64,000 bases of DNA, taken from Psammoneis japonica. Its lineage: Eukaryota. A program made the translations under genes and the position numbers. The stretch spans positions 372,001-436,000 of the forward strand of contig QPGO01000044.1 in assembly GCA_008632985.1 (NCBI GenBank). The letters are read 5' to 3'. Below are positions 1-64,000 of this stretch, in pieces. Position 1 is the stretch's first letter, and every line of letters begins with the position of its first letter. The notes under the pieces are model-generated. The model worked only from the letters and a program-made list of their open reading frames with translations, had not been told where the DNA came from and made no database searches.

Positions 1-1530
1 GGTTAATTCAGGAGTCAAAGAGGATGATGTCACTGCATTTCATGAGGCCACACCCCCAGTGCTGACTGTCACAATCATGAAAGAGTTGTCTCAAACATGT
101 TGAAGGCACAGAGGTCATCATCCTGCATGAGATCTCACACACCTTGCAAGCAAATGTGTCACAACAAGATTGTCCATTGAACACTCTTTGTTTGTGAACA
201 AACAACTTGCTTGTTTGTTTTCTTAAAATGATGTTGCCCTTGAACTTAAGCCAGTCAAATAAAAAAATTGGCCACACACACATTGTGATCAACCAACATG
301 TGAAACAAGAAATGGCTCACATTTTCTTTCAAACAATCACCTGTTGCATGAAGTCTGAACACAAACAACAACTCATTTCAATGCATTTGGCAGACTGTTG
401 TGTGTCAACTTCCCAGTCTTGGTGCTGTCTGATGGCAACACTTGATCATCACACAAACATGCTCCACCAGCGCATCTCATTGTGCCAGCACCTCTTTCAT
501 TTTCTGTTGCTGTCCCTGAACCCAAATGCTCCAAACCCAGGACTTTCCAAGGCATTGTCTTTTTTGCCCAGGACAAAATCAGCACAGCACAGTTCCCAAA
601 GATGTGCCATCATGCCATGCCACATGTTGTCAAGCGTGTCACCCATGCACCCATGAACAAGCTTTGTTGCCTCTTTGCTCTGTCAAAAACAGTCAAACAA
701 ATGCCACGCTGCAACACATCTGAAGATTGTCATGGCACCCCTTGCAACATTGGAGAATTTTGCCTGTTGGGGGGGCAGATTCTCATGATGATCCCATGCG
801 AACATGCAAGCCAGTTCTAGAGTGAATGGCATCTGCTGTGCTGCTCTCTCAGCAGACAGAGATCATGGGAAAATGCAAGTGGTTCAAGCAAAAGTTGAGG
901 CACAATGCAACACATGCATTGCCAAATTGCAGCCATTGATGACCATCATGAGGCGCAACCAGGTTTTCATCTGATGTCGCACATTTTCCCTGGCAAAGAC
1001 AAAAAGAAGTGGAGGCAGCACTGCTTGTGAAAAGCTGATCTCTCTGCTGACAAACCCAGTCTTTGCAAGAAGCTTTTGGATTTAGCAGACTGAGCTTCAT
1101 TTTGCATCTCCTCAGACACAGCTGGATTTTTCTTGACCTGATCAAGTGCATCTGGCATCTCTTGCAGCACATCTTGAGTGCATTGGGTGTCAACAACATG
1201 TTTCCAATCATTTTGTGATTTCTTGTCACTGCTGCTGCAGCTGTGGTTGCTCTGCTTTGTTTTAGAAACCATCATTTTGTGATGCTCTCTCATGTTGTGA
1301 CAAATGTCAATGTGGAAGCACCTCACACATGTTGTCCTTGCACTTAAAAATTCAAACGGGCAGGTGAGTGACAATCAAGAGATGTGCCCTTTTTGTCACA
1401 ATTGTGACATGTGTGAAGGTGCCACCACAGGCCACAACACAAGCAGCACTGATCATTTTAGTGTGTCACAAGCAGCAGTGATCAACAAGCAATTGATTGG
1501 CAATCAATTGACCATTTTTGTTGATTGTTG

Positions 1531-1692
1531 GAGGCAGGTTGAAAAAAATCTTGCTCTTGCATTTCCTGCTCACACAGCGGAACAAAAAAGCAACCCATCT
1601 GCTGCTGATTGGCTGTTGCCAATTGTTTGAGGCAGGTCAAAGAAAAAAGTCTTGCTCTTGCATTTCCTGCACACACAACAGAACAGAAAAAG
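1531..1692 (+). repeat. Imperfect direct repeat, about 60-bp core, about 100-bp period
   Basis: gaggcaggt..aaaaaa.tcttgctcttgcatttcctgc.cacaca occurs at about 1531 and about 1629. Confidence 0.8.
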
Positions 1693-2249
1693 TGGCCATT
1701 TTGTTGCTGTGGTTGATTTTCCACATGCAACTGGTTGGTGCTTGAGCAAATTTGTCATTGGCCCATGTGTGTGGTGACATCATCATGCTGTGGCTTCTGC
1801 GCATGAGGCAACAGCTACAACAACCATTTTGTGCATGCGCTCTGCAGCAATTCCCAAACAAAAACAATGACTGCATGCATGGCCACTCACTTCTGGGAGA
1901 ATGACAAGCCTGCTCTGCTTGGGGGCCCAATGAGATGCCATGCAGAGTGCAAGAAAAGAGAAAGCAAAATCTGTTTTGAAGGTGCTGCTGCACTTCCACC
2001 AGCAGCAGCCATCCAGAGCAGCTGGTGGCTGCAGTCAACAGCGGAGAAACAATGCATGTTGAGACTGCAGCACCAAGGATGCTGATCATTTTGCTTGCTG
2101 TCATCAGATTTTCTTTTTTTGCAGCTCTCCTCCTCTTGTGTCTAGAGAAGGAGAGTCTCTTGAGGTCTTCCTGGAGCTGCCCTCCAGCTTGAGAATCAGC
2201 ACACAAAAGGTCAACACAGTGGGTTTTGACAACAAAAAGAACACACAAG

Positions 2250-2830
2250 GCAAACAAGTTTGCTGCACAGCATGACATTGGAGTTGTGACTGCCTTTTCT
2301 GAAAACCACATGCTTGGAAACACATCCATGATTCACACCTTGGATTGTGGTCAACTGTGGGGGGCCACTTTTCACTTGTTTGTCATGAGAAAAACAAGAA
2401 AAAACAGCTCTGACTTCACAAAACAATTTTTTGGCAAAAATGGAAATGACACTTCTTGGTGCACATGTGATTGTGGTGAAGTCTAGAGCAGCTGTCCACT
2501 GCACTGTTGGAACTGCAAGTTGTTGGTGGCTTTTCATTGCATCACCAGAGCAAGTTCAAGAAGCAATTTGTTGCTGCAGTTCAAAGAAAATCTCAAGGTT
2601 TGGGCCAACAACATGATGTGGGATCAGGGCTGCACATTTGCGGGCTGGTGCACTGCTGCATTGAGCATGGGCACAAGGGTGCACATTGACATGTGCAAAC
2701 ACTTGAAATGATCTAGAATGGGTTTGTGGAACTTCACAAGATTGCAGCAACACACTTTCTCATTGACTGGACAACCACATTTTAGTCCACAAAGCATTGA
2801 TGCCATGGATCAACTGTGACACATGAGTCA
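2250..2830 (+). pseudogene. Hypermutated copy/paralog of the DUF1647-like gene at 7879
   Basis: Collinear with 8040-8620: KANKFAAQHDIGVVTAFSENHMLGNTSM vs KANKCTPQHDIGIVTAFSENHMLENISM; FKENLKVWANNMMWD vs FKENPTVWANNMMRD; multiple frameshifts. Confidence 0.92.
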
Positions 2831-5666
2831 TGAGTCTGGTTCACAGATGATGCTTCCTGTCACCCAGCACATCATCTTCTGGAAGAAATGTCCATTGAAT
2901 CTCTTGGCAACAGCAACTGGAGTGATCTTCATGGCCATCAGGCTGGAATGCCTCTTCTGGTCAACCATGAGAACTTCTCACAATTTGCATCTTTAGAGCA
3001 TCTCTTTGTTCCCACAGCTGTCATCATCCTCTGCACTGCACCTTTGCAACTTCAAAAGAATTCTCTGCTCTCCCTGTTTGCCATGAATTGTTGTGTCACA
3101 AGTGGCTGTGACCCCAATTTGAGCACTGTGGGTGTCAACTTGAAATGAGTTGCTGCTGCTCAGTCATCTCCTTGCAGATGGCATCCAATCCACATTGCAG
3201 TCCAGTGGCAATCTTCTGTGTCACAGCTCTGCAGCCAATCTTCCATGTTCACTCTTCATCCAGAAACATGCCTGATTCTTGGACAACTGCTCCTGCTGAC
3301 CCTCTTGCCAGAATGGACCTGAGCTGCCACCCAACAGCTCACTGCTGCATTTGTGGCTGTCAGCACACCCAACACTCCTCCAATGCTTCCAACGCCCATC
3401 ATGGCAGAAAGCATTCTCCCATGGTGTCCATCTTGGTGGCTCTCTCTTTTGAACAACCAGAACAAGTAGAAGGACACTTGCATCTGCCACTTTGTGCCTC
3501 AGTGTTGCCATCTGAAGGCCATCAACTGCTCCATTGAGCAATCCCTTCATGACCAACAACATGCCTCACCAACTGCTTCCCATTTGACCATCTGCAATGG
3601 TCATTTTAGATGACCCAAGATGTTCAGGATGGTCTCTTGTTCAGGTGGTGACTCAAACTGATCACTGCCATGGCTGCCACCTTGGGCTGCTGATCACTGC
3701 CATGACTGCTGTTTCTGACCCCATGCTGTCAAGTGCGCTGTGCCTCTCATCATGGCAGTCTCCTTTCAAGCACTTTTTTCATGCTCAGCTTGGGACAGGA
3801 TGGAGACAGTCCTGCCCACACACTTGTTTTCTCCAGAGGCACATTCTCCAATGATGTTGCTTTGCTTTGGGAAAGCACAACAAGAGGCTTCATTTCTGGC
3901 TCTTGGCACAAAATGCGGGAGCACAACCAATCCCTTCATGAGGAGAGCATGATCATCCTCCTGGATTTCCTGTGTTTCATTGCAGAACATCTCTCCCAGC
4001 ACAATGACAGCCATGCCAACACTGGGCATCACAAAACAGATCTGTCATTTGGATGAGTGCCTGCAATCAAGCATGAGTGCAGAAACAAGCACCACCATGA
4101 TGATGATTAAGAAGCACCATGGAGAGCAGCAAACTTTGCACCAGATGCAAGAGGGCCGGCACCAAAATTTTGAGCACATTCTTGGGACTTGCTGGAATGT
4201 TTGGCTGAGTGTTTTCCCACAAATGACCATCAGCACTGAAGTGAGTGCTCACAAATGCACAACTCAAGAGGCACTGGAACATTGTGTTGTTTGCAGCACA
4301 AGCCACACATGATCAGTGTAGAAAAAGAAAAGAGCACAAAAAAGCTTGAGCCCAATTTACAGTGCCGTTGCACCTTTGCCCAGCAACACCGGCACTGGCT
4401 GGCCCACACTTCCAGCACACCCTGCAAGGGGGGTGTGGCAGAAGCTCATGCAAGAATTGGCTGGTCACAGTGCCACCTTGCAGCAACACCTGCCCACCAA
4501 AGACAACTGATGAGAACAAAATGGCGTGCAGATGAGGCCTTTGCTTTCTTTTGAATTGGGCGCACATGTGACCCACAAAACAGCAGCAAAGGAGGACGGT
4601 CATGTTTGGAATGGGGAGCATGGACTAAAGTCTCTCCTGCTTTTGTCACAATGGAAACCACAAAATGCTTTTGGACTGTGTTTGGATTAGAAACAAGTGA
4701 AAGGAGGATTTGGAACTTGTTCAGGGTCTTGCCAAGGCTGAAGAATGCAAGTGCTTTGGCATTGCTGAAAAATGCTTGCAATCTAATGACTTTGCTGAGG
4801 CTGCTGCTGTGAACACAAAGCTCTTTCATCACACCAAAGCATGGCAGGAGGAAGTGTTCACAAGAGTTTGGTGATGCAAATTGCCAAGCACTGGCAAAGG
4901 GGAAACAAGTGGGGGACTTTCAGTGCATGCACCAGGCACATGAATTCATGCTCCCACCAAGAAAACTGAACACAAGTTAAAAAAAACAGGGGGGGAGAAC
5001 ATCATCAAGTCTGTTGACAAATTGTTGGCACAACCTCACAAGTGTTGAGACCCAGATCATGTTCCCAAACACTCTGTTTTCTGTGTTGAACTGTGATGCC
5101 TGCCAACTTCCATCCATGCTCTGAGATCTTGGGTGTTTCTTTTTTGCTTTGGCTGAGGGCATCATGTGGCATCTGTCTTCTGTCATGCAGCAGAAGATGA
5201 TGTGATGGCCTGCTGGTGGCACTGTTCATCACAGCTGGTCATTGGTGGCAGACTGACAGACAGACTGTGGACTGACCTCCTGCCTGCTGGCTCTGAACCA
5301 CTGCAAGCTCAACTCGCCAACAAAGAATGACAACCACCAACTCCTTCTGCCATGGTGCACAGCTTGCTGGCTTGCCACTTGCTGTCCAGAGACAACAACA
5401 CAGACACACAAGCTGTCATTGTCAACACAGCTCTTGGTGTGATTTTTGGGATGCTTGTGTTGACTCAAAAAGGGAAAGGGGGTGCAGGTGCACCAGAGTG
5501 CCACTGTGCTGTGACAAAGATGCAAACAGGAGAAACTGTCAGCAGCAGCTGCTGCTTGTCCCCACATGCACTGCCTTGCTCAAAAGCCTTGATGCTGTGT
5601 GAGTGATGGAGAAAAAAAGAGAGTGAGAGAAGATCACAAGGCAAAAGAGCAGCACAATTTGATCCC

Positions 5667-5669
<3 letters not shown>

Positions 5670-5711
<42 letters not shown>
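5670..5711. repeat. (GA)n microsatellite
   Basis: Uninterrupted ga run of about 40 bp. Confidence 0.97.
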
Positions 5712-5718
<7 letters not shown>

Positions 5719-5961
5719 TTGATTGACTGTTCACAAAGCACAAGCTCTGTGCACTTGCAGTCATTGAAAGGTGCCACTTGCCTTCAATCAAATGACACAA
5801 ATCAATTTTTTACAAGAGCAGACACTGAAAGAAGTGCAGATGAAGGATCCAAAACAGTGCATGATGGCCACTTTCTTGTGGTTGATCACATCTGCCAACC
5901 ACTCACAAGAACATGTGACTGAGTGCCCCCCCCCCCGGCATTCAGTGTTGTGCATGTGCAA

Positions 5962-6108
5962 AAATCTGTTTGCACAGTGCTCCATGCTGACATGCCACAA
6001 ATGTGATGGTTGGTGACAATTGTGCATGACGACATGTGCTGTGCACAAATCTGTTTGCACAGTGCTCCATGCTGACATGCCACAAATGTGACAGTGGATG
6101 ACAATTGT
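5962..6108 (+). repeat. Direct repeat, 85-bp period
   Basis: aaatctgtttgcacagtgctccatgctgacatgccacaaatgtga is identical at 5962 and 6047, with further similarity to tgacaattgtg. Confidence 0.9.
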
Positions 6109-7603
6109 GACATTGAAGGTGCAACAGAAAAGCACCAGAGAGGTGCCTGGGATCCAGCGAGTGTGCTGCAAATTGTGCACAAGCTGAACGACTTTCCCGT
6201 GTTGCCCAGTGAGAGACACAGCCAGTTGCTGATAGACTCACATTGAAGTTTGAACTTGTGTCTTGACTTTCTGCCAACAAGTGTTTCTTTTGCACTCAAG
6301 CACACTTGTGCTGGGGCTGCACACTCTAAAACTTTAAAATTGTGACTGTTGAAAAGGGTTGAGGTTGGTCACACATGTGTTGAAGTGGCAGTTCTTGAAC
6401 CAAGTCTAGGACAGCAGCAGCGCCAGAAGAGTTGGCATCATTCTGGCTCCAAACAATGGTGCAAAAGAAGGACCCAAGTCATCCTTGGCACTGGTGGTGT
6501 GCTGGCAGCACCAGAGATCACACCACCATGGAGGAGGCGCCAGTGCACACCTCAAAACTGCCCTTCCACCCATCCTTTGGCTGAGGTTGGGTTTGAGTGG
6601 AGCACCTGCCAGTGCCCGTGCATGCAGAGCCACCACCTCAGGATGAAGCAATGAGCGGCATTTGCACCGGCGGTGCACCAAACAATGAACATGGCAAGCA
6701 ATGTCCATTTGCACCATGACCATGCCCCATGGCTGTGACCCCTGATGATGAGCTCCAGCTTGGGGTGGCATCTCACAGCAATGGCAGGGCCATGTGAGGA
6801 CACCCTGCATTTTTTGGTGTTTTGGTGAAAAATTTGGGTGCATTTCTGCGTAACTTTGGGGATCACTTTTGTGCCAGTTTGTGGCACAAAATTGTTGGGC
6901 CATCCACTGAACAATTTTTAACATTTTCATGCTCTGCTGCATTCTCTGACATTTGCAGAGAGAGTGCAGCCATGCACCATGCAAATTTTCAACATGAAAA
7001 GGTGCAGCACCTCTGGTGGCACACAAGCTGTGGAGCTTTCACACAAATTTCCACAAGCAAAGTGTTGTCACACCGCCAAGAAGTCCTGCCCAGAGCTGGA
7101 ACAAATGCAACAATGGGGGGTGGGGGAGAGAGAGGCATCCCTCAGCTCTGGAGGTGTGTGCCGCACAAAAGTCATGCACACTTCAATGTGCAGTCTTCTT
7201 CTTTCACAAAATTGTTTCACACAACAGCATGCCTCCCATTTTGCAAAGCCAACACAGATGGAGGAGCCACATTTCAGCCATTTCTCTGACAACACAGTAA
7301 AAAGTGGGGGCTGCATTTTTCAAAGTCTGAAGAGTGCAGCTCTGAGCATGCCAAAGGTGGCACACTTCAAGCACGGAAATCATTGACTGCAAAATTAACT
7401 CGTTTTGACAGCAGTCGTTGGCTGTTCATCACCCAGCAACAGCTTTGCTGCAGAGCTTGCACAGGTCCCTTTTCAACTTGCCAACCAAGGGCAATTGCAA
7501 TGGAGAAAAAAAAAAACAGCAGAAGCAAAGATGCAACGGCACGGCAGACGGCAGCCTCAGCAAGCCTCGCTCGCTCTTCCTGAGCCTGTGCTTCCTGCGG
7601 CGA

Positions 7604-7604
7604 G

Positions 7605-7878: not shown

Positions 7879-8872
7879 ATGATGGTCAATTTGCTCGCTG
7901 TTGTCAGCTTTTCATGTGTACTTCTCCTCCTCTTTACGGTTATTTGGTCTGACCGAAACCTGCCCCCAGCTGAAGAATTCGCACAAACGAAAACACCAAA
8001 GGTCATCACAATGGATTTTCAACAGCGAGAAGAATGCAAGGCAAACAAGTGCACTCCGCAGCACGATATTGGAATCGTGACTGCCTTTTCGGAAAACCAC
8101 ATGCTCGAAAACATATCCATGCTTCGCACCTTGATTGCGGTCAATTACACTGGCCCGCTTTTCATTTACGTCATGAGACAACCGGGAGAAGACAATTCTG
8201 CCTTCATAAAAGAATTCTCGACAAAAATAGAAACGACAACTCTCGATGCACACGTGATAGATTATGAAGTCTCGAGTGATTATCTATTCTACTGTTGGAA
8301 ACCGCAAGTAATTGGTGACTTTTTATTGCATCACCAGAACGAGTTCAAGACGTACATGTGGACCGATTCGTCGACGCGATTCAAAGAAAATCCCACCGTT
8401 TGGGCCAACAACATGATGCGGGATCACGTTGCGTTTGCGGGTCGTACTGCTCCATTGGGTATGGGCGAAGGGACACACATTGACACGTACACGTACTTGA
8501 AACAGTCTCGAATGGACTTTGTGGAATACCGTGAGATTAAAGCGACTCACTTTCTCATGAATCTGGGTGACCACGATTTGGTCCATGAAGTCTTGATGCC
8601 ATGGATCGACTGTGCCACGCGGGCGTGTCCGGACCTGCATGGCTCCGCCGGGATCGTCCAAAGAGATTATGAAAGGCAAGGTCATTCGTGGACCACCCTC
8701 CACCACATACATTGCACACCGACAGGATCAGTCCGCTCTGAGTGTTTTAGTGTATGCCTTAAAAATACAGCGGTCCGGAAATGTAAAATTGCACAATAAC
8801 CGAGACTACATTAGAGTTGACATTGTCAGGCACGCCGATGAAGGGGTAACAACGTTGTATGATCTAAGCTAG
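7879..8872 (+). CDS. DUF1647-like type II membrane protein (putative glycosyltransferase-like); frameshift near 8630
   Basis: N-terminal TM anchor; IVTAFSENH, YCWKPQVI, MWTDSSTRF, PWIDCA; continues in the 8612-8872 frame as CMAPPGS...HRQDQSALSVL, motifs I recognise from DUF1647. Confidence 0.7.
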
Positions 8873-9830: not shown

Positions 9831-9863
9831 TCCCCGCTGTACAAACTAATGCTATCAGTTGCG

Positions 9864-19778: not shown

Positions 19779-20800
19779 ATGCATGTGTGTCGAAACGGCG
19801 CACCCTGCGATGTCCTGAAAAAGACAGAATTGGTGGAGAAGTGCAAGGAGCTGTGTGACCGCAATGATGACAGATTGCAGCCGTCCTGGGTGGAGCTTGG
19901 ATGAGCAGTGAAAGTCAGTGACAAGTGGGCCAAGAAGGTCATCATGCATGGAGCTTCGCAGCGAAGAGGGGCTCGTTGACCCTTGCTGTCAAAAGCCTTT
20001 GAGACACATGGGGGCAGGAGCACTGACACTCAACCAGGACAAGGCTTTTTGCTTGATTGTGCTTTGTTGCAAGAACCCTTCCCGAGTGCTGAGAAGCCAC
20101 CAGACGGAACTCTCTTTGTTGCACTGGAACACTTGCATCACAAAGCACAGCATCTCTCGTGTTGCACTGTGGCTTTCCACATTGGCAAGGGAACTGGGCT
20201 TGGTTGATTGATGAGTTCAGACCCAACAATGTTGAAAGAGCCATTGAACATCTTTGAGCAATTGTGCAACTTGACCACCGGCGTGTCAAGTTTGCTGATG
20301 AAAAATCTCTCAAAGGAACAGAGCTCTTCAACCAAAAAGTCCAGCATGATCCACTCAATGGAGAAACGCCATCCATTGTGACAGACTCTGACTTTTGCAA
20401 TGTTTGCAACATTGTTGGTTTCTGCAGTGTTGACCAGTCTGCCAACCCATTCTTTTTCTGTCCAAATCAAGATGCAAATGATTCTGTGGACTTTTCCATT
20501 GCTGTTGAAAAGGCCATTGTGTGTCAGGCTTTCTGCAGCCATGTGATGTGCTTGTTTGTGACAATGCATGGATCCATGTTGCTGGTGACAATGACACCAT
20601 GGATGAATGGCTGTGGACAACTTTTGAGTTGGTCTGGTGTTCCTCCCCCACCCCAAGCCCCTGAGATGAACCCAACTGAGCCGCTGTGTGGAACCATCTT
20701 GTGCATTGCCTTTTGTCTGCCAGTTTGGATGACCGCCTTCTCTGGGGTGAGGATCAAGTGGCCCACGCACCACAGCCATCACACAGGCATTCACACACAC
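19779..20800 (+). mobile_element. Degenerate Tc1/IS630-like DDE transposase
   Basis: VKFADEK (first D, about 20297), DNAWIH from DNARIH (about 20560), MDEWLW, APEMNPTE (SPELNPIE-like, E at about 20678); stops and frameshifts; terminal inverted repeats not found. Confidence 0.8.
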
Positions 20801-21049
20801 AGATGTGGAGTCTGCATGCTGCCACTGTGGCCACCTGGTCTAGATTGCAAGAGGTGGAACTTGCGCAAGCTGTGGATTTGGACTGTCATGTTGTGGTGTG
20901 GTGTGCAGAACAGTGCAGTGTAGAATGGAGCACATTGTTCATCACGCTGTGCCAGGGCTGCACAAATTGAGTTGCACATGTGGCTGCCTTGCAGCACCTG
21001 CAAGACAAATCCTTGTGTCAGTGCAATGCAGTGCATTGCGTTGGGCGGC

Positions 21050-21170
21050 GCTCTGCTCTCTGGAGCTGGAGAGTTGCTCTGCTCCAGACTGGCAGCTGGC
21101 AGATGCCACCACTCAGTGGTGCTTTGCTCTAGACTGGCAGCCAGCAGCCACTGCCACTGGCAGTGGTGGT
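21050..21170 (+). repeat. Short imperfect tandem repeat, about 50-bp period
   Basis: gctctgctccagactggcagc at about 21076 and gctttgctctagactggcagc at about 21121. Confidence 0.6.
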
Positions 21171-21659
21171 CTAAACAAATGCCAGAGCAATGGTGGTTGC
21201 CTGTCAATGATTTTACAATGGCAAGTGCTGGGCTGTTGTTGGCTGCCACCAAAAAAGAAATGCAGCTCAGTTGAAAGAGACAAGCTGACATGCTTGACTT
21301 GAAATGCTGAAGCAGAAGAATTCAATGAAGTGCACACTTGTGCAACAGTGCCATCACACACTGAGTCCCCACAAGCAGGGACAGCAATGAGCTGTGCCAG
21401 CAAGACTGGCTGTTTGGGTGAGTCTGACAGAGTGGACGACCATTCTGTCAAATCTGCCAAGACATGATCCAAGGGGGTCAAAGCATCCAAAGCTCCATCT
21501 TGGGGAGTGACATGCCCAGCCATTGTTTGGTCTGCAGAGACACAAGGCACCTCAGCATTGGTCTGTTGGGATGATGGCGCAGGAGCAGAAGCCAATTGAG
21601 CAGGCAAAGAAGTTGGAGGAGGAGGAGGAGCATTTGCATGCTCCAATGCCTGCTGCAGC

Positions 21660-22215
21660 TTTTCCCATGCCACATCACCTGTTGTGGAGTTGTGACAGAA
21701 GGGCTTGCCACTGGCTGCTTTGGTGGCACAGGTGGCTTGGCATTGGAGCTGGCCAAGGCACTTGCAGTGGAGGAGTTGTGGTTGGAGCTGGACCGGGATC
21801 AATCCAACTGCTTTTCCCGGTGGCATCACTGCAGGAACACAACTTGCCACTTTCATGATCATGACATTGCCCCCAATCTTGGGCAGCATGGACATGAGGC
21901 ACCATGGGGCTGGACAACATGTTGCATCTTTTCCCAGCTTGCCACTCCCATCACAGTGGTGCTGACACAGAATGTCCTGTTGCTGGCAGTGTCACAGTGT
22001 CACTCCAGCTTTGAGGGGTTGCTTTTGGAATGGAGGTGGAGGTGCAGTTGGAAGCACAGTTGCAGGCATGGCCAGAGGCACAGTCAGAGGCAGGGGCTGC
22101 ACCAGCAGTGGCTTGTCCCACCTTGCTTCCCCAGTTGTGGTGTTGCAATGATGCAGTTTGTTGCAGGTGCTGTCATCTGTCATGTGTGCTGCTCTCCAGC
22201 CCTGGGGAAGCTTGT
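21660..22215 (-). pseudogene. Fossil gene segment with two WW domains and Pro-rich linkers
   Basis: LPQGWRAAH..NKLHHCNTTTGEARWDKP (about 22110-22212) and SGKPFCHNSTTGDVAWEK (about 21660-21740) match the WW consensus LPxGW..GrxYYxNxxTxxxxWexP with Tyr replaced by His/Cys. Confidence 0.85.
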
Positions 22216-25200
22216 CTGGTGATGGAGGTGGTGGTGGCAAACCAACACCAGTGGCAGAGATTGAGCTGCTGCACGCATTGATGGAATCCCAAAAGCCAGC
22301 AACCTTGCTGCAACCACTGCCCAGTGTTTGCTGTCAAATGATTGTGGAGCAAGGCAGCCAATGGGAGTTGGAGCAATGGCAGTGCTTGTGGCACACCGTG
22401 CACAACACTCAAAATGAAACAAGATGAGACAAGATGAGATGAGACAACACCAACTTGCCATGCCTTCCATCAACCACCATGAGAGTCAACAGGGACACCC
22501 CAGCCACAGCCTTGGTTGTGTTGTTGAGATGTGAGAGCACCTGTGTGAATGTTCTTGGTGGCACATTTTGACTCTGCTGCTTCTTGTTTCAGCTGTGCTC
22601 TGTTCTCTGCTGCTTGCTCTCACAGCTGAGCTCTGCTTTCCTGGAGAGCAAGTTTGTTTTGGAGCCATTGGTTCTTCTTTCCATCTTTGCACATTCAACT
22701 GAAGCTTTGTCTGATGCTGCTTTCTCCTGGAGCTTTTTCAAGGCCAGACACTTGCTTGCAAAGCTTGTTGACTTCCAGTGCATCTTTCTCTTCTTGCATT
22801 CCACCATCAAAGATTTGAGGCTGTTGGTGGTGATCTTCTTGGATTGCAAGGAGGTGTCCTTGCGATTGATGTCATGCTGCAATCTGTTGATCCCAGACTT
22901 TGCAGTGTCAAGTTGCTTTGATGACTTCTCTGAAATTCTTTGCAGTGGAGTGCACGGTTGCTTTTTCCAATGGTGTTGTGACGTCAAGAGCCACAACAAC
23001 CAACAGTGTGCCATGTCTTGTCAGCTCATGTGCGGCAGAGTTGACACGTGACAGCGCAACGGGCTTGTTGTTCACTTGTGCGGTCAAAAAGCAATTGACA
23101 AAAAATGAACATTTCAGCTGTTTTTGCTGCAATCAATCAACATCAAAGCACACCAAGCACATCCACATGAAATTGGTTGCATGCTGTCAACACATGTCAG
23201 TGTCATGGTGAGCTCATGGCTGTTGATGGAACACTGCATTTGTGGTTGCCATTGTTGTTGTGCTTTGACAAGTCATGGAAAATTTGAAATGTCCATTGTT
23301 TGTGTTGCAAGAAATGCAAAACACAATGCAGGTTCTTTGCATTGTGCAACAAGTCCACATGTTTTGAGCACAAGCGGCTGTCACATTGTGCAACTTGACA
23401 AAATGACAATGTGTTGGCATTGATTGCCAAACACAGTGCTCACCAAGATCCATCTACAAACACTGGGCTTGCTGGCACTTGGATGGGCCGGCTCCACTGC
23501 ATCATTTGGCAAGGACAGTCCATTGGATGGCTGCCTCAAGAGGCAACAGAAGCTTGTGGCAGCTCTTTTTTTGTGTCCCCAAACAATGCACCCGTTGAGA
23601 AATGCCTTTTTGATGGTGTTGACTTTGGAAGCAATCCATGGGGTGTGTTTTCAGCAAGACAATCACCTTCATTCCTGGGAAGCGGGTGGTGCGGAGAACG
23701 TTGCACAAGTCTTGCACTTTGGACTTGCCAACGCAGAAAAGGAAAACTTTGAGACCAAGCTGAAAGCTGTCATTGGAAGCTGCAGGTCCATGGCCTTGGC
23801 ACAATGACCAAGAGGTTGCTTGAGTTCTGGCTTCAGCAGAGCAACTGTCCAGACCCACTCTGAAAAAATGGGTTTGCTGTTCTGCCTGTCATTTGCAGCA
23901 ATGCAATTTCACAAGCCACGTGAGATGATGGAAAAGGCACATGAACAACAGAAGAAGAAGTGCAAAACATTTCCCTCTGCCGCAAAACTGGTCTCTCTTT
24001 GCAAAAAACCAAAGGCAAGCAAGAACAAAAATCTTGCATGGGCAATGATTGTCAAAAATCATGTTCTCAGGATGGCAGCGGCTCAAATCTTTTGGTGGAC
24101 CAAGAGGTCCCTTGCACAACAAAGAGATCTCCTCACAGGCACAATTTGTGGCAGTGACGCACTTCAGCATCATTGTCTTCAATGGTCGTAACATCAGATG
24201 CTTGTCAAAACATTTGCCTGCACATTGGTGGCTGTTGGCAAGGAACTTGACCAAAACAATGTTCCCCAACTTGTCTGGGATGAAACAACAGAGGGCTCCG
24301 GTCTTGGTGCATCCACCACAACAAACAAAGTTTTGACAGTCTGGATGAATCTTTACACCGTCCAGCACAATCTCAGCTGGGACAGTGCCAAGCTCATTCC
24401 TCGCCACTTTGCAACCAAGAACCAAGCCCAGTGTTGAGCACTGTCCTGCACACTGCAGTGTGTGCGGTGTCATCACAGGGGTGAGGATTGCCAAAGCACT
24501 CCATCTCTGGCTCATCATGGCGAACATCTGCATGGAACCACAGATGTCCACAAGCACAGACTTGATCTGATTGCGGGTGACAAGGTTTGTTTCTTTCTCA
24601 AAAATTCAAAAACTGACTTGTCATTTTGGGACTTGCTCCCTGTTCTCAAGCACTTTGTGCAACTAACCACAGGCACCAAAATCAATCCCATTCCTTTTCT
24701 CTGGCTGCTTGGACCAACAATTGTCACTTTGCTTGTTGCACTTGTCATTCTCACAAAGGGCAATGGAGCAGCTGTGTTCAAATGCAAAATGAGCAATCAT
24801 GCCAACATCAACTTGGAGAGATCCAAAGTGTTTCCACCAAAGATGTGAGGAAGAGCACAAAATGGCGGCATCATCCTGGATGTGTTGAGCCCTTGGGGGA
24901 CAACCACCAGCTCCTGATCATGAGTTGCAGCAGAAGGAAGTGGTTGCATTTTCTCAAAGGAACAAAGATGATGGCACAGATTGTCAAGCAGGTGACAGTC
25001 AGCTGGAGAATGATGCAAGTTTGGCTCATGATTGGTGGATTGCTCGTTGTCCTCATCATTGTTGTCCAGATCATAAAAACCACAAATGCAAGGAGCACAT
25101 CTCAAGACATCAGCAGGTGATGCAAAGCTGCAACAATGACCACAGGGGAACCAATCATGGATTGACAAGGAAGTTTTGTGGAGCTTGCTGATGTGCTGGC

Positions 25201-27349
25201 TTCAATGGAGATGCTGCAGAAGCAACTCCTGAGGATGGACCAACAGCGCCGGTGTCGGGGACATTCTGAACTGGGTCATTGTTGTTTGATGAACCACCTG
25301 CAAATGGCAAATCTCTGTCTTGCAATGACTCAACTGCATTGTCAGCTGAAGGTTGCGACTGGGAGGCAAGCATGCTGATGGAGCAATTGGCAGCTGGAAG
25401 GGCATTGGCTGTGGTGCTGGTTGGCTGAGCAACAGGATTCTGGTTGGTGTTGTTTGTGGATGAAGCAGGCGGAGGTGCCAGAGAACCAGCCGACACAGTG
25501 GAGGACTCCTTGCTCTTCTTCATCCTCTTGGTGGAAGAGACAAACTTTGCCTTGGCTTCACGGGAAAGGTGTGGATGCATGAGATTGTGGACACGTGACC
25601 GCACAATTGTCAGGTTGTGGAACTAAAAACAATTCATGTCCTTGCAGGAATGCTTGAGGGTGGAGTGGAGCTCACGTTCAACCAACTCTTGGCATTTTTG
25701 TGCCACGCCTTTTGCAGAGGCATGTGTGTTGATGCAAGCCTTGACACATTCCACATGGTTGGCAAGGATCTTCTTGGCAACCTTCCCATCCTTCAACTTC
25801 TGACCTGTGCTCATCAGGGCAGAGCATTGTTGCAAAACAGCACAAACTGTTTCCTCTTTTTTCAGCTGGAAAAAATGATGATGAACCAGTGTCAAAAATC
25901 ACTGAACTCTTTGTTGATGTGAGGCAGAAAGCAACAATCCATCATGGGGGCAGCGGTGCTCAGGCATTGTGCAAAAAAGCCCAACTTGGAATGGAAGCTC
26001 TGATGATCCACAGGAAGCAAGGGTCATTGCCAAGTTGACTGTGCACTGTCATCTTTCATAAATTGTCAATGATTGCACAGAGATTTTTGCCAAACTGGGG
26101 CAGATTGGAAAAGGTTTTGGCCAGCTTGCGGTGCTCCAGAACACACCTCCCATCTTTTTGGCAGAAACACAACCACAGCCACAACTTTTCACAGAATGAA
26201 AGCCATTTTTGCTGCCAAGAGAATGGGCAACTGTGTCATTGACCATCAACACTTCCATGAAGAAATGGGGGGGCTCGATTCATTCTGGCAGTTGCAATGA
26301 ACAAAGGGCAGAGCAATGAGGTTGGGGGAGGGAGTCTCCATTCAGAAGTCTCAAGAAAGTGCTGATGACGGCGCTGTGTCTCGATCATTTTTTTTAAAAT
26401 TGAGCCTTGGTCATGTGGGCGCCGCCAACACCGTTGGCGCACACTTTGGCTTTGTCGTCCGGCACAGAACCATCCCTTTTGTCCAAAGAATCATCGTCTG
26501 TGTTGTCTTCACTGGGAAAAGAAAGATTGCTGGCACAACCATCAAGGTCTCCAGATGCAGACAGTGCCCTGGCATGAGAGCTGCCTTGGCTGGTTGAGTT
26601 GTTGCCATCAGACATGGAGTCATTGTCAGAGCTGAGATTGATGTCATCAGAGAGGCTTGCTGCCACATTGGAGGGAGACAAAACATCGAGCAATGAACCG
26701 TCTTGGTCAGGAGATGTGACAAAGCAGAGCGCAATGCCAGTTTCACATTTGGTGTCACATGCTTGAACAAATCATCAGAGTGAGAAGAGAGACGTTGCTT
26801 TCACTTGGGCATGACTTTGAGCCAGGGCATGATTGCAACAGCAGGAGAGGCAAACTGCCATGGGCAATCATGGCATGAACAACGGACACAGAATCCTGCA
26901 AACTGCTGGTCACACTGCTTTGACAGCTCTGCACTGATTCGCCAAAAACACAGGCAATTGGATCTGCAGATCACAAGCAAAAGGGAAAAATGTCCCATGC
27001 ACAATTGCTCAGGCAAGTGGTGGAAATGAAACATTGTGACTCACCAGGAGGAGGGGTCTTGGAGGGAAAGCAAAAAAGGTGAAAATTTGGCGGAATGATT
27101 GGCACCCATCATGAGGACAGAAATGCAGAACTTTCAGCAAAAATGCCACACACAATTTGAAAATGAATGTTTTTCAGTTGGAACAAAATGCAGCTGTTCA
27201 TGGTTCAGGCAATGATGCAGCCATGTGACTTGGCATGTTGAATTGAACAAAATGTGTCTGGGTGCAACACAAGTGCAAAACACACCAATCAGCAAAGAGA
27301 GTGTGAACAAAACTGTTTCACTCCTGACAAGTGAACATTGAATTTAATC

Positions 27350-27369
27350 CGGGGGGGGGGNGGGGGGGG
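27350..27369. repeat. Poly-G run containing an N (possible assembly join)
   Basis: ggggggggggnggggggggc. Confidence 0.85.
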
Positions 27370-30300
27370 CAACCAATGTTTGTGCAAGTGCGCATGCCAT
27401 GAGATGGTGGGGTTCAATGACCTGTGACTCAAGGCCTTTTCCATTGGTTTTTGATGACTGTTGAGGGGGAGAAACAGCTGAAAGCAAAGAACAGTCAAAC
27501 ACAAGATTGCACGTGGATGCTTGGCTGACCAACACCACCAACAAAAGCAAAAAACCAGCAAAAAGCTCATGCAGTGACAAGGTGGCAGCATTCATCAATG
27601 ACAAAACAGACTGTTGGGGGCAATGCTGTGTTTGCAACAGATTCAGAGTCTGCCCCAAACTCCCCCAGGAGCTGTGGCAAGCACATCATGGGCTCCCTGG
27701 TGTGTGGCCACTGGCAGCTGACAAGTGCACCAAACAACGCACTGCAGCTGCTCTGCATCAAGTGACAGATGTGTGGGTGGATGGCTGGTTGGATTTGGCA
27801 AAATCACCTGATTTTGGTGAACTGAGAATCTAGACATCCGGGTTCCTTTGGACAGGTTAGACAGCCACCACCTGCGCTGGTTGCTTCAGGTTCACACATC
27901 ATCACCTCATGTTTTTGTTTGAAGCTGCACGTTGTCATGGTGCATGACGTGGCATTTTGAAGTTGCACCCCTTGCAATGTTCAGAGCAGCAAAAAACAGA
28001 GCATGCCCCACCACAGGACTTGATCATTTGCAGATCAACAGCCACAACATTGACCAAGATGAGAGTGCAGTCACACCGCTGTTGAGCAGTGCTTGTTTTG
28101 ATGGCTGTTCTGGATTTCTTGGCACTGTTGATTGTTGTGCCACATTTGGACACACAACATGTTCCAGTCCCAGGTGACACACAAAATGACAATCCATTTT
28201 GAACATGAGTTGCATGTCTCTTGTGTGTGAAGCATTTGAACATGAAATGCTTGGGGGCAGATGGCTTTTGCAGGTGCTTGGAGTGTGCACACATGCAGTT
28301 TTCTTGTTGGCATTCAATTCCTCATGGGACATGTGTCACAAACTCTCTCTGCAGACTCAGCGCTGATTGCATGTCAGTGCATTGGATGCAGATTTTCAGT
28401 TGCAGGTAGAACACCTGCCAGAAGGTCTTGCAAAAAAAATTGTTTAATTTGGCATCCAAACCATTGCAACAATTTTGCCGAAAATCATCCATTGTGTTGC
28501 GATTCATTTGTTGCAATGAAAACACAGACAGTGCAATGACAATCACATTGCAACACTGATGCGAGCATTGCCAGTGTTGCAAAACATGCAAATTTGAATG
28601 AATCCACACTTTTGGTGGTGAAAGCTTGTTTGCAAGTGAGAGACTGCACAAAAATTGCACAAATGTTGTTTTTGTGCACGATTTGGGTCAAGTGCGGCTG
28701 GAACACGTTGCACAAACAAGCAGTGTGTTTGCTGACTTCTGCAGGGCTCTCACGACCGCTGTGCAAATGAGTCTGCAATCAATGGGTTTGTTTCTGCTGC
28801 AGATGCAATTGTCAGCATCTAAAGAATGCAGGTGTGTGGATGGCATCATTTTTGTTTCTGTCAGTTTTCCATGACAGATGCAGAAAATGATGCTCTGATT
28901 TCCAACGTCAACAGCGCGGATCTGTCCCCATGGTGGGAGCCACCCTTGACAAACAATTGGCTTTTGGAAAAGCATTTTCATGGGGGCCCTTTTGTCATCA
29001 TTCCTGAGAATTGCACGCTCCTCACACAAACTTTCCCACCAAAAATGGGAATGACAGCAGAGAACATTGAAACAACCAATTGAACAAATGACATTTGTTG
29101 ACATCAATCTTTGCTTCAAATTTCAACATTGTCATTCTCATTTTTGGTTGCGTCAATTTACATTCAACATTTGAAAGAGGATTCTGAAGTTCTTTGCATC
29201 CAATGCATGTGAAAACACTTTTTTGATCTGAAGTGATTTCTGCTGTGGGGAGAGATCCCGACAGGGATCAGTGCACCGTGCATGACACAGAGAAAAGGAA
29301 CAATGGAATTTTTTTTCAAAGAGAGAAGAGGAGCCAACTCATGCAGCAAATGCAGTTGTTGGATGCTGCAAGCTGCACACAACAGCTGGTGCCTTGTTTG
29401 GAACATTTTTTGCTTCCTCATCAAAGTGGCAGCAGCAACCACAACACCTTGCTCATTTTTGCTGCGCAATGCAGCATGTGGTGTGCTTTGTCATGGGACA
29501 GTGCATGAAACCAAAAGTGCAATGGATGGGAGCTCCCAACCATTGGCAACTGGATCCATGAGCTGGTTCCAAATTCATGCTCAAATGGACTGGAGCGGCT
29601 GTCCTTCGTTGTGTCTGCACGCCATCTGCACGGAAACTGATTTTGCCACCAGCGGACACTCTGACTGGCCAACCACCCGTGTGCACCAAGGAACACTGCT
29701 CCACTCTGACAATGCTGTTGCCAATGGACACTGCAGCACACCTGAGACTTGGTGACAGCTTGTGTGTGCAAGACATGAGTGCTCTTTGGACCCTGACTGA
29801 GGAAGGTTGGTTGTTGGAATTGTGCAAGCGGCTGCTGTCACAAAGCACACCACCATCACAACAGAGATTGACGGCACTCGTTTCCAAAAGAGTCTTGTGA
29901 AAGTGCAGTGGAGGAACTGCGCACAAGCTCAAATGCTGCTTGTGTGAAAGTGATGAGTGGTTCATCCCATCATTGAGGCATGGGGCACAACCCATGCAGC
30001 AGAAAGTTTGGCACAGACAGCACGTTCTTGTGTTGAGACAGCTCTTGTTCCTTTGTGCAAAAGCATGGCTTTGAGGCTCACCTCCACCCCAAAGGCCGCA
30101 CAAGCTCACACATGCAAAGTGATCCATTCAACAACACCAAGCAGCACTGCAAATGAAATGACAGAATGATGAGAATGACTCAGCAGTCAATTGACTGATG
30201 ACAGCAAACCTGAAAGCAGCAGCAACAAATCACAGCAGTGACATTTTGACACAAAAGTGTGCACTGCTGCTTCATTGTTTTCAGATGCATGAACAGGACA

Positions 30301-31518
30301 TGCCAAAATTGCACCCTGAAAATCAAAAAAACATGAGGGCACTGACAGGCAACAAATGTTGGGGCAAATGTCCAGAGCCACGGCTGGTGATGGCCGAACT
30401 CCAACAAAGAATCAAGTGACATCAAATGCCATCTCATGCCCCACTGCCCTCGTTGGCAATGTTGTGCCAACCCAATGTGCACCCAAAAAAAGGAACAATG
30501 ACAAAATTTGTCAGCAAGCTTGATCTTTCTAGTGTTGCTTTGCCATTGTTGACTTTGATCGTGGTTGCAAAAAAGTCCTTTGAAGACTGGCACAAGCTGA
30601 AGAAGAGAAGAGCAGAGATGACAGAAAAGCTGGACATTGTTGTCAAGATTTGGGAGCCGTGGCATGAGCAAGGCCAGCCATCAGTGACAAAGGGAGCCTG
30701 AAAGTTCATCTGACAGCAGGCTTGATTTGCGAAAAAGCGTCTTGAAATCTGGGAGACAGAGGTGCTTGGAGGTTTGCGCAAGAAATTGCGCAGCAACATG
30801 CTGCCTGCTGATTGCACAGATTTCCATGCAACATGAAATTATCCACATCCACATTTTGGACGCGTTCCAGGTCTAGGTGGGACCTCGCACTGCTGAACTG
30901 TGACATCGATAGTTTTTTGAATCACGTCGTATGTCGCGCACGTAGATTTCTACGTGATTTTTTCGATATTTTGTGTCATTTTACGGTACATTTAATGAGC
31001 GATCCGTCCAACAACTTTTGACATTTTTTGTTACAGCGCGATTCTATAATGTCTTAAGAATCGCGTAGGGCAGGCGCATTTGCAAAAACGTCGAGTGGCA
31101 AGAGGCATAATTGTACCACAAACTTGGCAGTTATTTGATGTTGAAGATAAATATATCCATTAATTAAATTCTCGTACTACGGAGCTCGCACGTAGAATTC
31201 TACGGGCCCAATGTCACACGGAGTCCCACCTAGGACTGGAACCCGTCTTTGGACCTCTTGTCTCCCGAACGCTGGGGCGTGAGGTAGAAGGTCATGCAAA
31301 AAATCATGTAGAAGCATGCCACTGTAGTTGCTGATTATGTGGATTTCGACATGTGACAAAAAATTATCCACATCTTCAATCTGCAGCACTCTAGAGACCT
31401 CTGATCTCCCAAACGCTGGGGAGAACACTCCAAAGCAAGCAAGGGAACAAGAACGAGGAACACAAGAAGAAGGATGGCCACAATGGAGACAGAGCCAGAA
31501 ACACCGATGCAAATGCAA

Positions 31519-31700
31519 ATGGCCATCCCTGATGTCTTTTTGTGTCATGCTGGCTGTGGAGGACAAAAGGCGGGCATCGTGTTGCTGGTCTACGAAGAAT
31601 TGAAATGCCGGAGCATCACAAATGTGTTCTTTGACAAAGAGAGCTTGAGAAAATGGAACATGGAGACATGACAACACTGGATGCTGCCATGCCAATTCTT
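31519..31700 (+). pseudogene. TIR-domain N-terminal fragment
   Basis: MAIPDVFLCHAG..QKAGIVLLVYEELKCRSITNVFFDKESL resembles the TIR start DVFLSH..D/K..L...L...VFFD. Confidence 0.7.
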
Positions 31701-31759
31701 CATTGAAATCTTCCAAAACCCTTCCCATGCAAGATTTTTGTCCCACTCATCAACCACCC

Positions 31760-32200
31760 ACAGAGGGAGCACTGGCAAGAATGTGATCTGCCAGATGTGA
31801 AAAGGGCAAACTCTGCAACTGAACATGCCAGTGCCCCACAGTGTCGCCACAAGCAGAAACATTTTTTCCCCTCTGAGTGGCATGCTTTTCAAGCCTGGTC
31901 GTGTCACAAATGAAGCGTGCTGTGACACAACCCTTTGTCAAGAACTCACAGTTTTTCACTGCACAACTCACACCTGACAAAGACACCAACAACACAAGCA
32001 CATGCAATGCTGTTGCCCTTTGACTTTTGCAAAAGGCACCCTCTCCACCAACACAAACCTGCTGCACACACACAACAAGACAAAAGCTCTTCCTTTTGAC
32101 AAACCAACTTTTCTCCATGGGCACCCACATTGACTGGAACAACAGCTCTGATTTTAAAGCCACAAACAGCACTTGCTTTTTCTTTCTTTGTGGACTTTGC
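31760..32200 (-). pseudogene. Hypermutated copy/paralog of the AIM24 gene at 38764-40144
   Basis: Collinear with 38850-39320: VVPVNVGAHGEKLVCQKE vs [40 protein letters not shown] vs [22 protein letters not shown]. Confidence 0.92.
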
Positions 32201-54100: not shown

Positions 54101-54410
54101 ACTGCAACAAACAAGCAGGTTTTCTGCATCACTTGTCAAGAAGCAACGCCAGGTTTGCGGATTGAAAAAACCGTTTGCAGCTTGGCAGCCTTGCTGGGGG
54201 GCACCAGCTCCACACACAACAATTGACCAACAAATGCTGCTGAAAAAGAATGCATTTGTTGCCACAGGCATGGGCCTGTGATGGCCATGCCAAGCACCGA
54301 CACCCAGACAATGGGATCAACTCTCTTGCGTGCATGGCTGCTCCCGCGAGACAAGCACTCGCAGAACTTCGGCTCAAATTCCATGGACGGATGGACAGAC
54401 AATTTTGAGC
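51170..54410. other. Hypermutated block 5
   Basis: Same signature; CpG-retaining margins at both ends. Confidence 0.88.
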
Positions 54411-56746: not shown

Positions 56747-56859
56747 GGGTGCGTTTTTCAGCTTGTAGGCGTGCAGCGTGTGACTCTCCATTAGCTCTAG
56801 ATGTTGTCAAGTGAGGCGATGATGATCTTGCCTTTGACCAAGTTCTCGAATCCAAATTC

Positions 56860-63699: not shown

Positions 63700-64000
63700 G
63701 GATGTCTCAGTCGTCACTCTGCCATTTTCTCGCACTTAGCCGTGTTGACCATTTGCCGATGCCGCTGAGCACCCCCCCAAACACACGTGATTGTGTCCAA
63801 GTCATGCCTTGACAGACATGCTTTTTTTCAATGCAGTGTCCATGGCCACAGATTAAAAAATCTGGTGCCGTTGGATGACACAGCTGTGGGAGCCTGCACC
63901 CCATGATCTTGAGTTTTGGGGCTGCTGCTTGGGCATCTTTTCATCTCTCTGCGCACCCACCTTCTTTTGGTGCACTGCCATTTTAGCTTCAATGACAAGC
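63700..64000. other. Start of hypermutated block 7 (runs off the window)
   Basis: TAY-free, TG/CA-rich after an AT-rich spacer. Confidence 0.7.

Follow-up and report, generated by a model that had tools for sequence, protein, structure and literature searches.

Repeat-induced point mutation (RIP), described in Neurospora and other ascomycetes, turns C into T, above all at CpA, which creates TpA and lowers the G+C content; it depends on an enzyme of the RID/DNMT4 type, operates in the sexual phase, is triggered by duplication and mutates both copies. The decay of methylated CpG is known from vertebrate genomes and from the transposons of plants and fungi, and a hypermutation of TCG is found in some basidiomycetes. 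In E. coli, the Vsr (very-short-patch) mismatch correction shapes the oligonucleotide frequencies, acting on one pentanucleotide, throughout the genome and with a modest effect. The hydroxylation of thymine by enzymes of the TET/JBP type (giving 5-hydroxymethyluracil and base J) is known in dinoflagellates and kinetoplastids, and a preference for TpA has been reported in dinoflagellates. The present analysis concerns one stretch of 64 kb from Psammoneis japonica (contig QPGO01000044.1, positions 372,001 to 436,000; hereafter the window), in which an intact gene, gene B, is accompanied by a mutated copy, copy A, whose CG and TA dinucleotides have nearly all given way to CA and TG. The scope of all the results is this single 64-kb window and the two before/after pairs that it contains. 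The members of the first pair, where ORF stands for open reading frame, are the following:

2036..2828, plus strand: copy A, truncated pseudogene of gene B, about codons 1-248 of about 330
7879..8872, plus strand: gene B, intronless, ORF 7879-8799 as assembled, with the C-terminus in ORF 8612-8872

The original prediction, made from the letters alone, had seen in 2250-2830 a mutated copy of the gene situated 5.8 kb downstream, and this observation is confirmed by the blastn score (E 6e-106), by the stops and by the loss of CG and TA. The blastn alignment joins 2201-2822 to 7993-8618 with 74.1% identity over 638 columns, and a second segment joins 2070-2137 to 7870-7934. The span of copy A is 2070-2822, but it extends to 2036-2828 if only purines and pyrimidines are compared; in this purine/pyrimidine space it matches 7834-8624 with 86.9% identity, and the differences between copy A and gene B are therefore mostly transitions. 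The global alignment has 723 aligned columns, 548 of them identical (75.8%), and 56 gap columns. All six word pairs that had been quoted were found at matching places; among them are CACGATATT (8062) with CATGACATT (2271) and GATCGAC (8604) with GATCAAC (2808). In-frame stops occur at codons 32, 132, 209 and 248 of copy A and 13 codons are gapped. A search of the C-terminal 86 amino acids and of the flanks of gene B in 1-7536 gave no match. From the four stops, the gapped codons and the missing C-terminus, copy A is therefore a truncated pseudogene.

Copy A holds 1 CG and 4 TA in 753 bases, against 43 CG and 23 TA in 749 bases of gene B, which is a normal content; as had been claimed, only one partner is affected. 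In the span 2250-2830 there are 1 CG, 3 TA, 74 CA and 72 TG, and in its partner span 8040-8620 there are 38 CG, 20 TA, 46 CA and 46 TG. The 41 aligned CG of gene B have become TG (18), CA (14) or another dinucleotide (8) in copy A, where a single one is kept, and the 22 aligned TA have become CA (10), TG (6) or another dinucleotide (6), none being kept. The near-total loss that had been announced amounts to 40/41 CG and 22/22 TA, and the announced conversion to CA or TG by a transition to 32/41 CG and 16/22 TA. The 113 CA or TG of gene B are kept in 91 cases, exchanged between CA and TG in 11, changed to TA in 1 and hit by transversions in 10.

Expressed as transitions per site, these changes reach 0.39 at CpG (31/79) and 0.43 at TpA (18/42), as compared with 0.11 at CpA/TpG (24/227) and 0.12 at the other sites (43/357). 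The excess is significant for CpG (31/79 versus 67/584 in the rest, Fisher p=7e-9) and for TpA (p=1e-6), so that the TA rate does stand above the background of transitions (0.11-0.12), as had been supposed. The copy is not recent, a further point of the original prediction: transitions (0.12 per site) and transversions (0.08 per site) have also struck non-target sites, and the alignment contains indels. The only CG retained by copy A lies in the context GCGG, and its three aligned TA are all new, in the contexts CTAG, CTAG and TTAG; these are the contexts most resistant to loss across all the CG/TA-poor DNA described below. Copy A, a paralog of the putatively DUF1647-like gene B, is thus dead and truncated at its 3' end; from a sequence resembling the intact gene, it lost essentially all CG and all TA by single transitions to TG or CA.

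The polarity of these changes was examined with the protein of gene B and 22 outgroup proteins (38-48% identical), copy A being projected onto the codons of the gene. We scored the codons where an amino-acid difference coincides with CG or TA in the gene and with CA or TG in the copy. The outgroups match the residue of the gene at 31 of these codons and that of the copy at 5, and are uninformative at 7; for the other differences, the corresponding numbers are 24, 12 and 23. A second pair is present in the window:

31734..32209, minus strand: decayed partial AIM24 copy, the second mutated copy, in CG/TA-poor domain 3 and 7 kb from the gene
38883..39533, minus strand: AIM24/TIGR00266 gene, the intact partner, in normal DNA (PF01987, E 6e-66)

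The aligned segments of this pair are 31742-32181, in CG/TA-poor DNA, and 38834-39314, covering part of the AIM24 gene; the 5' part of the alignment is poor and may add noise. From the 24 aligned CG of the gene, 17 have become CA or TG and 1 is kept in the copy, and 12 of the 13 aligned TA have become CA or TG. With 40 outgroups (64-76% identity), the gene residue is supported at 26 codons and the copy residue at 4, with 2 uninformative. The outgroups therefore favour the gene residues in both pairs, which indicates, at the amino-acid level, that CG and TA are the ancestral state and that the loss occurred on the branch of the copy lying in CG/TA-poor DNA. The direction from gene to copy given in the original prediction is retained. 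The opposite polarity, where the copy would keep an ancestral CA/TG and the expressed gene would have gained CG and TA, can invoke the few codons at which outgroups carry the copy residue, but it is opposed by the far more numerous codons backing the gene and by the stops and frameshifts, which are in the copy; we regard it as extremely unlikely.

Paralogous sequences located in normal DNA served as a negative control. They are three copies of the C-terminal part of a TIR/zf-MYND gene:

15085-16891: first control copy
17044-18288: second control copy
36535-38271: third control copy

The pairs compared as controls are 82-88% identical; for the three copies as paralogs, a range of 78-87% was also obtained. 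Between them 54-77% of the CG and 52-72% of the TA are kept, the transition rate is 0.05-0.16 for CpG/TpA sites and 0.06-0.08 for those outside pyrimidine-purine (YR) steps, and the exchange between CG/TA and CA/TG goes both ways. Swaps between CA and TG are seen at 1-3 of 150-223 sites in the control pairs, against 11/113 and 11/59 in the two pairs with a mutated copy. The pattern of copy A is absent from the control pairs and is therefore not the general mode of paralog divergence in this genome.

A segmentation of the window into two states, based on the combined density of CG and TA, yields seven CG/TA-poor domains amounting to 27.1 of the 64 kb (42%) and leaves 36.9 kb of normal DNA. The domains are listed with their observed/expected ratios (obs/exp):

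1..7536: domain 1, which holds copy A; CG 0.09, TA 0.06, CA 1.85, TG 1.95, G+C 0.472
19809..30839: domain 2; CG 0.21, TA 0.03
31415..34117: domain 3, which holds the decayed AIM24 copy; CG 0.24, TA 0.04
43060..44383: domain 4; CG 0.34, TA 0.05
51329..54328: domain 5; CG 0.21, TA 0.02
56818..58088: domain 6; CG 0.18, TA 0.06
63787..64000: domain 7, start only, cut by the end of the window

Over all domains the obs/exp of CG is 0.09-0.34 (about 1.0 in normal DNA), that of TA 0.02-0.06 (0.57 in normal DNA) and that of CA and TG about 1.85 (about 1.16 in normal DNA). The single-base composition is equal in the two states (G+C 0.48 in the CG/TA-poor DNA versus 0.47), and the summed frequency of the four YR steps is 0.245 as compared with 0.240. 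From this equality of base composition and of the YR total, the CG/TA-poor DNA has the appearance of normal DNA whose CG and TA were turned into CA and TG by transitions.

The edges of the domains are sharp to within a few bases, as for domain 1 at 7536/7537. Nine of the ten edges precede, by 180-565 bases, the ATG of a long ORF, the first to read away from the domain:

edge 7536: ORF start (ATG) at 7879
edge 19808: ORF start (ATG) at 19326
edge 34117: ORF start (ATG) at 34571
edge 43059: ORF start (ATG) at 42877
edge 44383: ORF start (ATG) at 44615
edge 51328: ORF start (ATG) at 50764
edge 54328: ORF start (ATG) at 54680
edge 58088: ORF start (ATG) at 58325
edge 63786: ORF start (ATG) at 63478
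edge 56817 (the tenth): follows the stop codon at 56746 by 71 bases

The normal domain 54329-56817 corresponds to exactly one ORF (54680-56746), with 350 bases before it and 71 bases after it, where domain 6 starts. The CG/TA-poor domains thus occupy the space between the gene clusters.

No repeats shared among the CG/TA-poor domains were found, purine/pyrimidine space included. The 109 stop-to-stop ORFs of at least 100 amino acids in this DNA gave five weak Pfam matches, none above the curated cut-off, and a check of its content for tRNA genes and Rfam families found none. Within the domains, the clustering of residual CG or TA is not significant, except in one domain (P=0.02). The duplicate represents 0.8 kb within the 7.5 kb of domain 1. 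The lack of shared repeats and of credible Pfam families, and the location of a 0.8-kb duplicate in a 7.5-kb domain, argue that the position in the domain decides, not the duplication. The mutation is not aimed at the duplicate; whole domains with sharp edges are in the CG/TA-free state. On this point the original prediction, which considered the duplicate, is corrected: the trigger is the position in a CG/TA-free domain and not the duplication itself.

These observations bear on a defence of the RIP type, triggered by duplication and carried out for example by the RID-related DNMT4, the intact partner being explained by selection against its mutated versions. The resemblance to RIP lies in dense, context-specific and nearly saturated transitions that irreversibly kill a gene copy, and the mutated stretch does duplicate a linked gene. 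According to PMC9998398, diatoms possess DNMT4 enzymes related to the fungal RID, whose function is unassigned. Against such a defence, the CG/TA-free state spans 7.5 kb around a duplicate of 0.8 kb and 27 kb in which repeats were not detected; most of the affected DNA is unique, the targeting follows non-genic domains, and the edges track gene starts and not the ends of the duplication. Gene B is intact and normal in CG and TA including its synonymous positions, which goes beyond what selection would protect, whereas RIP hits both duplicates. Moreover, TpA is the product of RIP but is destroyed here, where the changes end in CpA/TpG and leave G+C as it was. Neither of two defining features of RIP, namely C-to-T change at CpA with an excess of TpA and a duplication trigger affecting both copies, was thus found, and we hold a RIP-like defence to be unlikely.

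A foreign origin of the CG/TA-poor DNA (virus, mobile element or introgression), copy A being then a captured host fragment, would agree with its distinct composition and sharp edges. We judge it very unlikely, given that its G+C and single-base composition are those of the host, that no viral or transposon domains appear in the 109 ORFs, that two domains each contain the decayed copy of a gene located 6-7 kb away, that the edges sit at host promoters and that the read depth is equal in CG/TA-poor and normal DNA. Indeed, the word depth of read run X1 is ~55 over domain 1, which is the depth over genes.

The contigs of run X1 also bear on the reality of the sequence. They cover 83-1348, 1478-4358, 4430-5661 and 6062-7595 with 4, 19, 7 and 10 other letters, respectively, or ~40 other letters in ~6.9 kb of domain 1 (~99.4% identity). 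It could be supposed that modified bases of heterochromatin (5-methylcytosine, modified T or A) were miscalled, and the small indels between the assembly and the read contigs, one of which breaks gene B, are in keeping with a long-read consensus. The X1 contigs nevertheless carry the same CG/TA-free sequence, which excludes an artefact of consensus or base calling. Copy A additionally has stops, indels and ~20% of non-target divergence, and miscalls on two strands would leave many CG or make TA, whereas only 1/41 CG remains. The probability we give to a sequencing or assembly artefact is accordingly very small. From the 112 differences between X1 and the assembly, 40 were listed; 12 of these 40 oppose CG/TA to CA/TG and 2 are tandem TG->CA changes (1880/1881 and 5765/5766). 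The 12 differences indicate that the residual CG and TA of the CG/TA-poor DNA are unusually polymorphic. Double changes between CA and TG are present even at ~0.6% divergence, and we infer that the tandem differences separate two haplotypes or strains.

Although they concern nearly the same regions, the losses of CG and TA differ in several respects. The depletion of TA exceeds that of CG in every CG/TA-poor domain. The residual TA of these domains are in the context YTAR in 50 cases (TTAA 22, CTAG 10, TTAG/CTAA 18), against 260 in normal DNA, and never in RTAY (ATAT, GTAC, ATAC/GTAT), for which normal DNA contains 471; this contrast has p=7e-22. For the residual CG, YCGR is the least represented (46 versus 496 in normal DNA, TCGA 8 versus 204) and RCGY the most (96 versus 463, GCGC 44 versus 92), with p=2e-5. 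The flank preferences are thus opposite, the loss being strongest at YCGR for CG and at RTAY for TA. Spontaneous deamination of 5-methylcytosine is fastest with A/T flanks and slowest with G/C flanks, the same order as observed here for CG. As regards an influence of the flank on which strand of a site mutates, RTAR gave CA 6 times and TG 1 time, in agreement with the prediction, but YTAY gave TG 2 times and CA 3 times, and no effect was seen at CG sites. Ultraviolet damage was considered as a sole cause and rejected: ACGT, which has no dipyrimidine at its C, is more depleted than CCGG (0.19 versus 0.29).

CG and TA were also segmented separately and their territories compared. At six edges, all on the 5' side of genes, the territory low in TA extends 100-380 bases beyond the one low in CG, in the direction of the gene. 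The six shoulder zones so defined total 1188 bases with 88 CG and 2 TA, where about 48 TA are expected:

7537-7640: shoulder zone, 16 CG, 0 TA, with a (GCGT)n run
19661-19974: shoulder zone, CG-rich, TA-poor
44357-44732: shoulder zone, CG-rich, TA-poor
51157-51328: shoulder zone, CG-rich, TA-poor
54298-54414: shoulder zone, CG-rich, TA-poor
58089-58193: shoulder zone, CG-rich, TA-poor

The shoulder zones resemble promoter CpG islands still exposed to the process that removes TA. The stronger loss of TA, the opposite flanks and the CG-rich shoulders free of TA speak for two processes and not one.

The CG component has the characters of methyl-CpG decay. CG is changed to TG or CA in one compartment, presumably methylated by analogy with that decay, at a rate far above the other transitions (the p=7e-9 given above); the CpG obs/exp is of 0.1-0.3, A/T flanks are lost faster and CG-rich unmutated zones lie at promoters. 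Such decay explains only half of the anomaly, since the loss of TpA through A:T-to-G:C change has no counterpart there; the TA loss, the opposite flanks and the CG-rich shoulders do not fit it as an account of the whole. It usually has much less sharp edges, and a less complete depletion, than those seen here.

Natural selection purging CG and TA from non-genic DNA, for instance because of a nuclease, of cryptic TATA-type promoters or of protein binding sites, would be compatible with a depletion that is nearly absolute and sharply bounded, and with the fact that TA-free DNA lacks TATA elements and TAA/TAG stops. Such selection would nonetheless have to be effective at thousands of individual positions, although stops, frameshifts and ~20% of other change are tolerated in this DNA. 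The YR total is conserved as a simple conversion predicts, and the flank dependence of CG loss resembles the chemistry of deamination. We therefore consider a selective origin improbable, much as for the RIP-like defence.

Taking the evidence together, the best explanation is probably that non-genic domains are rewritten by mutation from CG/TA to CA/TG under two mutators. DNA outside transcription units, as judged from the positions of the ORFs, would be in a chromatin state open to context-specific hypermutation. Once no longer expressed, a gene copy would fall into this CG/TA-poor state and be scrambled, and copy A would have entered it in this way. The process would be fast and persistent or recurrent, any new CG or TA arising from CA or TG being resolved once more, with an even chance of giving the swapped dinucleotide. 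Such re-resolution would account for the 10-19% of double changes between CA and TG and for the tandem TG->CA differences; it predicts swaps at about the background transition divergence, and the observed 11/113 and 11/59 compare with 0.12-0.13.

The first mutator would be the deamination of 5-methylcytosine in methylated non-genic DNA, fastest at TCGA and slowest at GCGC, the promoter zones being unmethylated. The second would be a separate TpA-specific A:T-to-G:C activity, which goes to completion at RTAY and is least rapid at YTAR. The two would share nearly the same territory. The absence of RTAY stands against ~1,500 CA/TG sites of matching flank context in the CG/TA-poor DNA. If this reflects an equilibrium, the removal is hundreds of times faster than the creation, and this speaks for a process that is enzymatic or driven by repair and not spontaneous. 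If the second mutator is indeed mutational, its basis would rather be a modification of T or A at TpA followed by mispairing (5-hydroxymethyl- or 5-formyluracil, or deamination of adenine), a choice that we favour with some reserve. Oxidised thymine (5-hydroxymethyl- or 5-formyluracil) can pair with G, which gives T-to-C at TpA, and we know of no natural adenine deaminase acting on double-stranded DNA. The thymine hydroxylation of TET/JBP enzymes is comparable in that a modified T at TpA could give T-to-C; to our knowledge it does not erase TpA from a genome compartment and is not known in diatoms. A less probable basis would be a context-biased correction of G:T and A:C mismatches without strand-directed repair. 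Vsr correction offers a possible model, being a context-directed repair bias that removes short words without selection; but Vsr is bacterial and acts on one pentanucleotide, whereas a dinucleotide in a eukaryotic chromatin domain is concerned here, and we know of nothing comparable there. A share as small as that of mismatch correction is left to something else. More tentatively, and as a reading that we hold to be less likely than not, we propose a chromatin-targeted mutator of a new kind, which would change T:A to C:G at TpA, above all at RTAY, in double-stranded nuclear DNA and which, together with methyl-CpG decay, would erase all self-complementary YR steps from untranscribed DNA. Such a mutator would amount to natural DNA editing of A to G and T to C, by an adenine deaminase or an enzyme that oxidises thymine in DNA.

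Several points weigh against this explanation by two mutators. The before/after pairs within the window number only two, their polarity is read at the amino-acid level only, and 5 and 4 codons favour the copies, these codons belonging mostly to poorly conserved or poorly aligned columns. TA changed to CA more often than to TG on the plus strand (21 versus 7, p=0.013). The control copy 17044-18288 shows, in normal DNA, a mild excess of change from CG to CA/TG (19 versus 7 and 17 versus 8), perhaps an early stage of decay. A sequence of 575 bases, described below (30840..31414), keeps CG and TA inside CG/TA-poor DNA, so that position alone does not convert at once. The shoulder zones were delimited by the segmentation and then counted, which is circular, and only their position is independent evidence. 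Run X1 may come from the assembly's own sample, and is not a second organism. The terms methylated and untranscribed are suggested by ORF positions and by analogy. Finally, we know of no enzyme or chemistry that removes TpA in this way.

Some further features of the CG/TA-poor DNA can be described. TAA and TAG number 38 and 26 in its 27 kb (64 together), as compared with 343 and 280 in the 37 kb of normal DNA (623 together). Because these stops are nearly absent, the CG/TA-poor DNA is full of long spurious ORFs, many of 150-290 amino acids, in all frames and without family match, which can mislead annotation. Examples are the following:

1637-2329, minus strand: spurious ORF
21113-21895, minus strand: spurious ORF
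29453-30127, minus strand: spurious ORF

One island of different composition interrupts the CG/TA-poor DNA:

30840..31414: island of 575 bases with normal CG (32) and TA (34)

This island contains nested inverted repeats (for example 30859-30883 versus 31223-31247), and an imperfect direct repeat of ~55 bases flanks it (30806-30858 versus 31329-31383). Its sequence suggests a young insertion of foldback type or resembling a miniature inverted-repeat transposable element (MITE), so far unconverted, or a protected element. Short tandem duplications occur at 1472-1709, 5773-6109 and 21075-21247 with periods of ~102, 94 and 45 bases, and are clearest in purine/pyrimidine space. In domain 1, 4350-4430 is a short high-copy repeat: many loose contig ends are found at 4351-4361 and 4430, and the X1 word depth over 4001-4400 is ~1965 versus ~55 elsewhere.

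Gene B putatively encodes a protein of type-II-membrane-like organisation, glycosyltransferase-like and distantly related to DUF1647. Its relatives number 55 among 1.84 billion representative proteins. Gene B has no Pfam match of its own; four of its close relatives score 13.6-14.9 bits with DUF1647 (PF07801), below the cut-off of 25.7, and four distant relatives (P0170, P0172-P0174) are above the Pfam cut-off. In the Atlas feature search, DUF1647 clusters ranked first with a score of 0.94. By comparison with the relative P0001, the true C-terminus of gene B runs in another frame to 8872, the frame of the assembled gene being shifted by an extra base near 8629 (window positions 8620-8640). The contigs of run X1 are without this base (depth 46.7 of 46.7), which restores the frame; the extra base would be an indel introduced by the assembly or else mark a frameshift allele. 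For the AIM24 gene, the ORF has 216 amino acids against 250-265 in most relatives, and the outgroups side with the decayed copy, against the gene, around codons ~204-205, which points to a small indel or a disturbed frame towards the 3' end of the gene as assembled. At 11638-11864, a contig of another run, X2 (depth 193), leaves out 225 bases bounded by GT..AG; this is probably a spliced transcript, X2 being then derived from RNA and some canonical introns being present. Over 1-10000, X2 gives no cover, the only cover nearby being at 10169-10324, from which no conclusion on expression is drawn.

The window represents nuclear DNA of a eukaryote poor in introns. Its other genes code for the TIR/zf-MYND protein, a sulfotransferase-like protein, the AIM24 protein and an amine oxidase:

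61316-63478, minus strand: amine oxidase of 721 amino acids

Among the 120 matches listed for the amine oxidase, 11 carry the name of an organism, all of them diatoms, with ~35-45% identity; on this single gene, the window is affiliated with the diatoms. In 48 metagenome loci (344 kb) around relatives of this enzyme, 1 of 615 one-kb intervals resembles the CG/TA-poor DNA, and only partly. It corresponds to a patch of ~1 kb at ~7040-8000 of locus L008, whose relative is 35% identical, with CG (17) and TA (13) reduced and CA plus TG (204) raised; divergent ORFs lie on its two sides, and it stops ~200 bases short of an ATG. Another organism may thus have the same phenomenon in a weaker form. The phenomenon seems rare or weak elsewhere, though the metagenome contigs are gene-dense and short. 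In full-text literature searches on diatoms and other algae, no report of a joint loss of CG and TA was found, nor, for diatoms, any report of 5-hydroxymethyluracil.

As a whole, the phenomenon would belong to the context-specific hypermutation of silenced DNA, and its TpA component may be categorically new. If this is true, a second context-specific process, from TpA to CpA/TpG, would join RIP and methyl-CpG decay in rewriting silenced eukaryotic DNA, and would have been found in diatoms, a major algal lineage with RID-like methyltransferases of no assigned function. We know of no natural A:T-to-G:C activity acting on double-stranded DNA with dinucleotide precision, and such an activity would be relevant to the biology of DNA repair and to base-editing technology. 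The sequence would permanently record which DNA has remained outside transcription units, its edges at promoters being defined almost to the base. A TpA mutator would leave spacer DNA sterilised, without TATA elements or TAA/TAG stops, and dead copies scrambled. For duplicated genes this would represent a route of death, in which silent copies would soon be past recognition and could no longer recombine with the copy that is alive.

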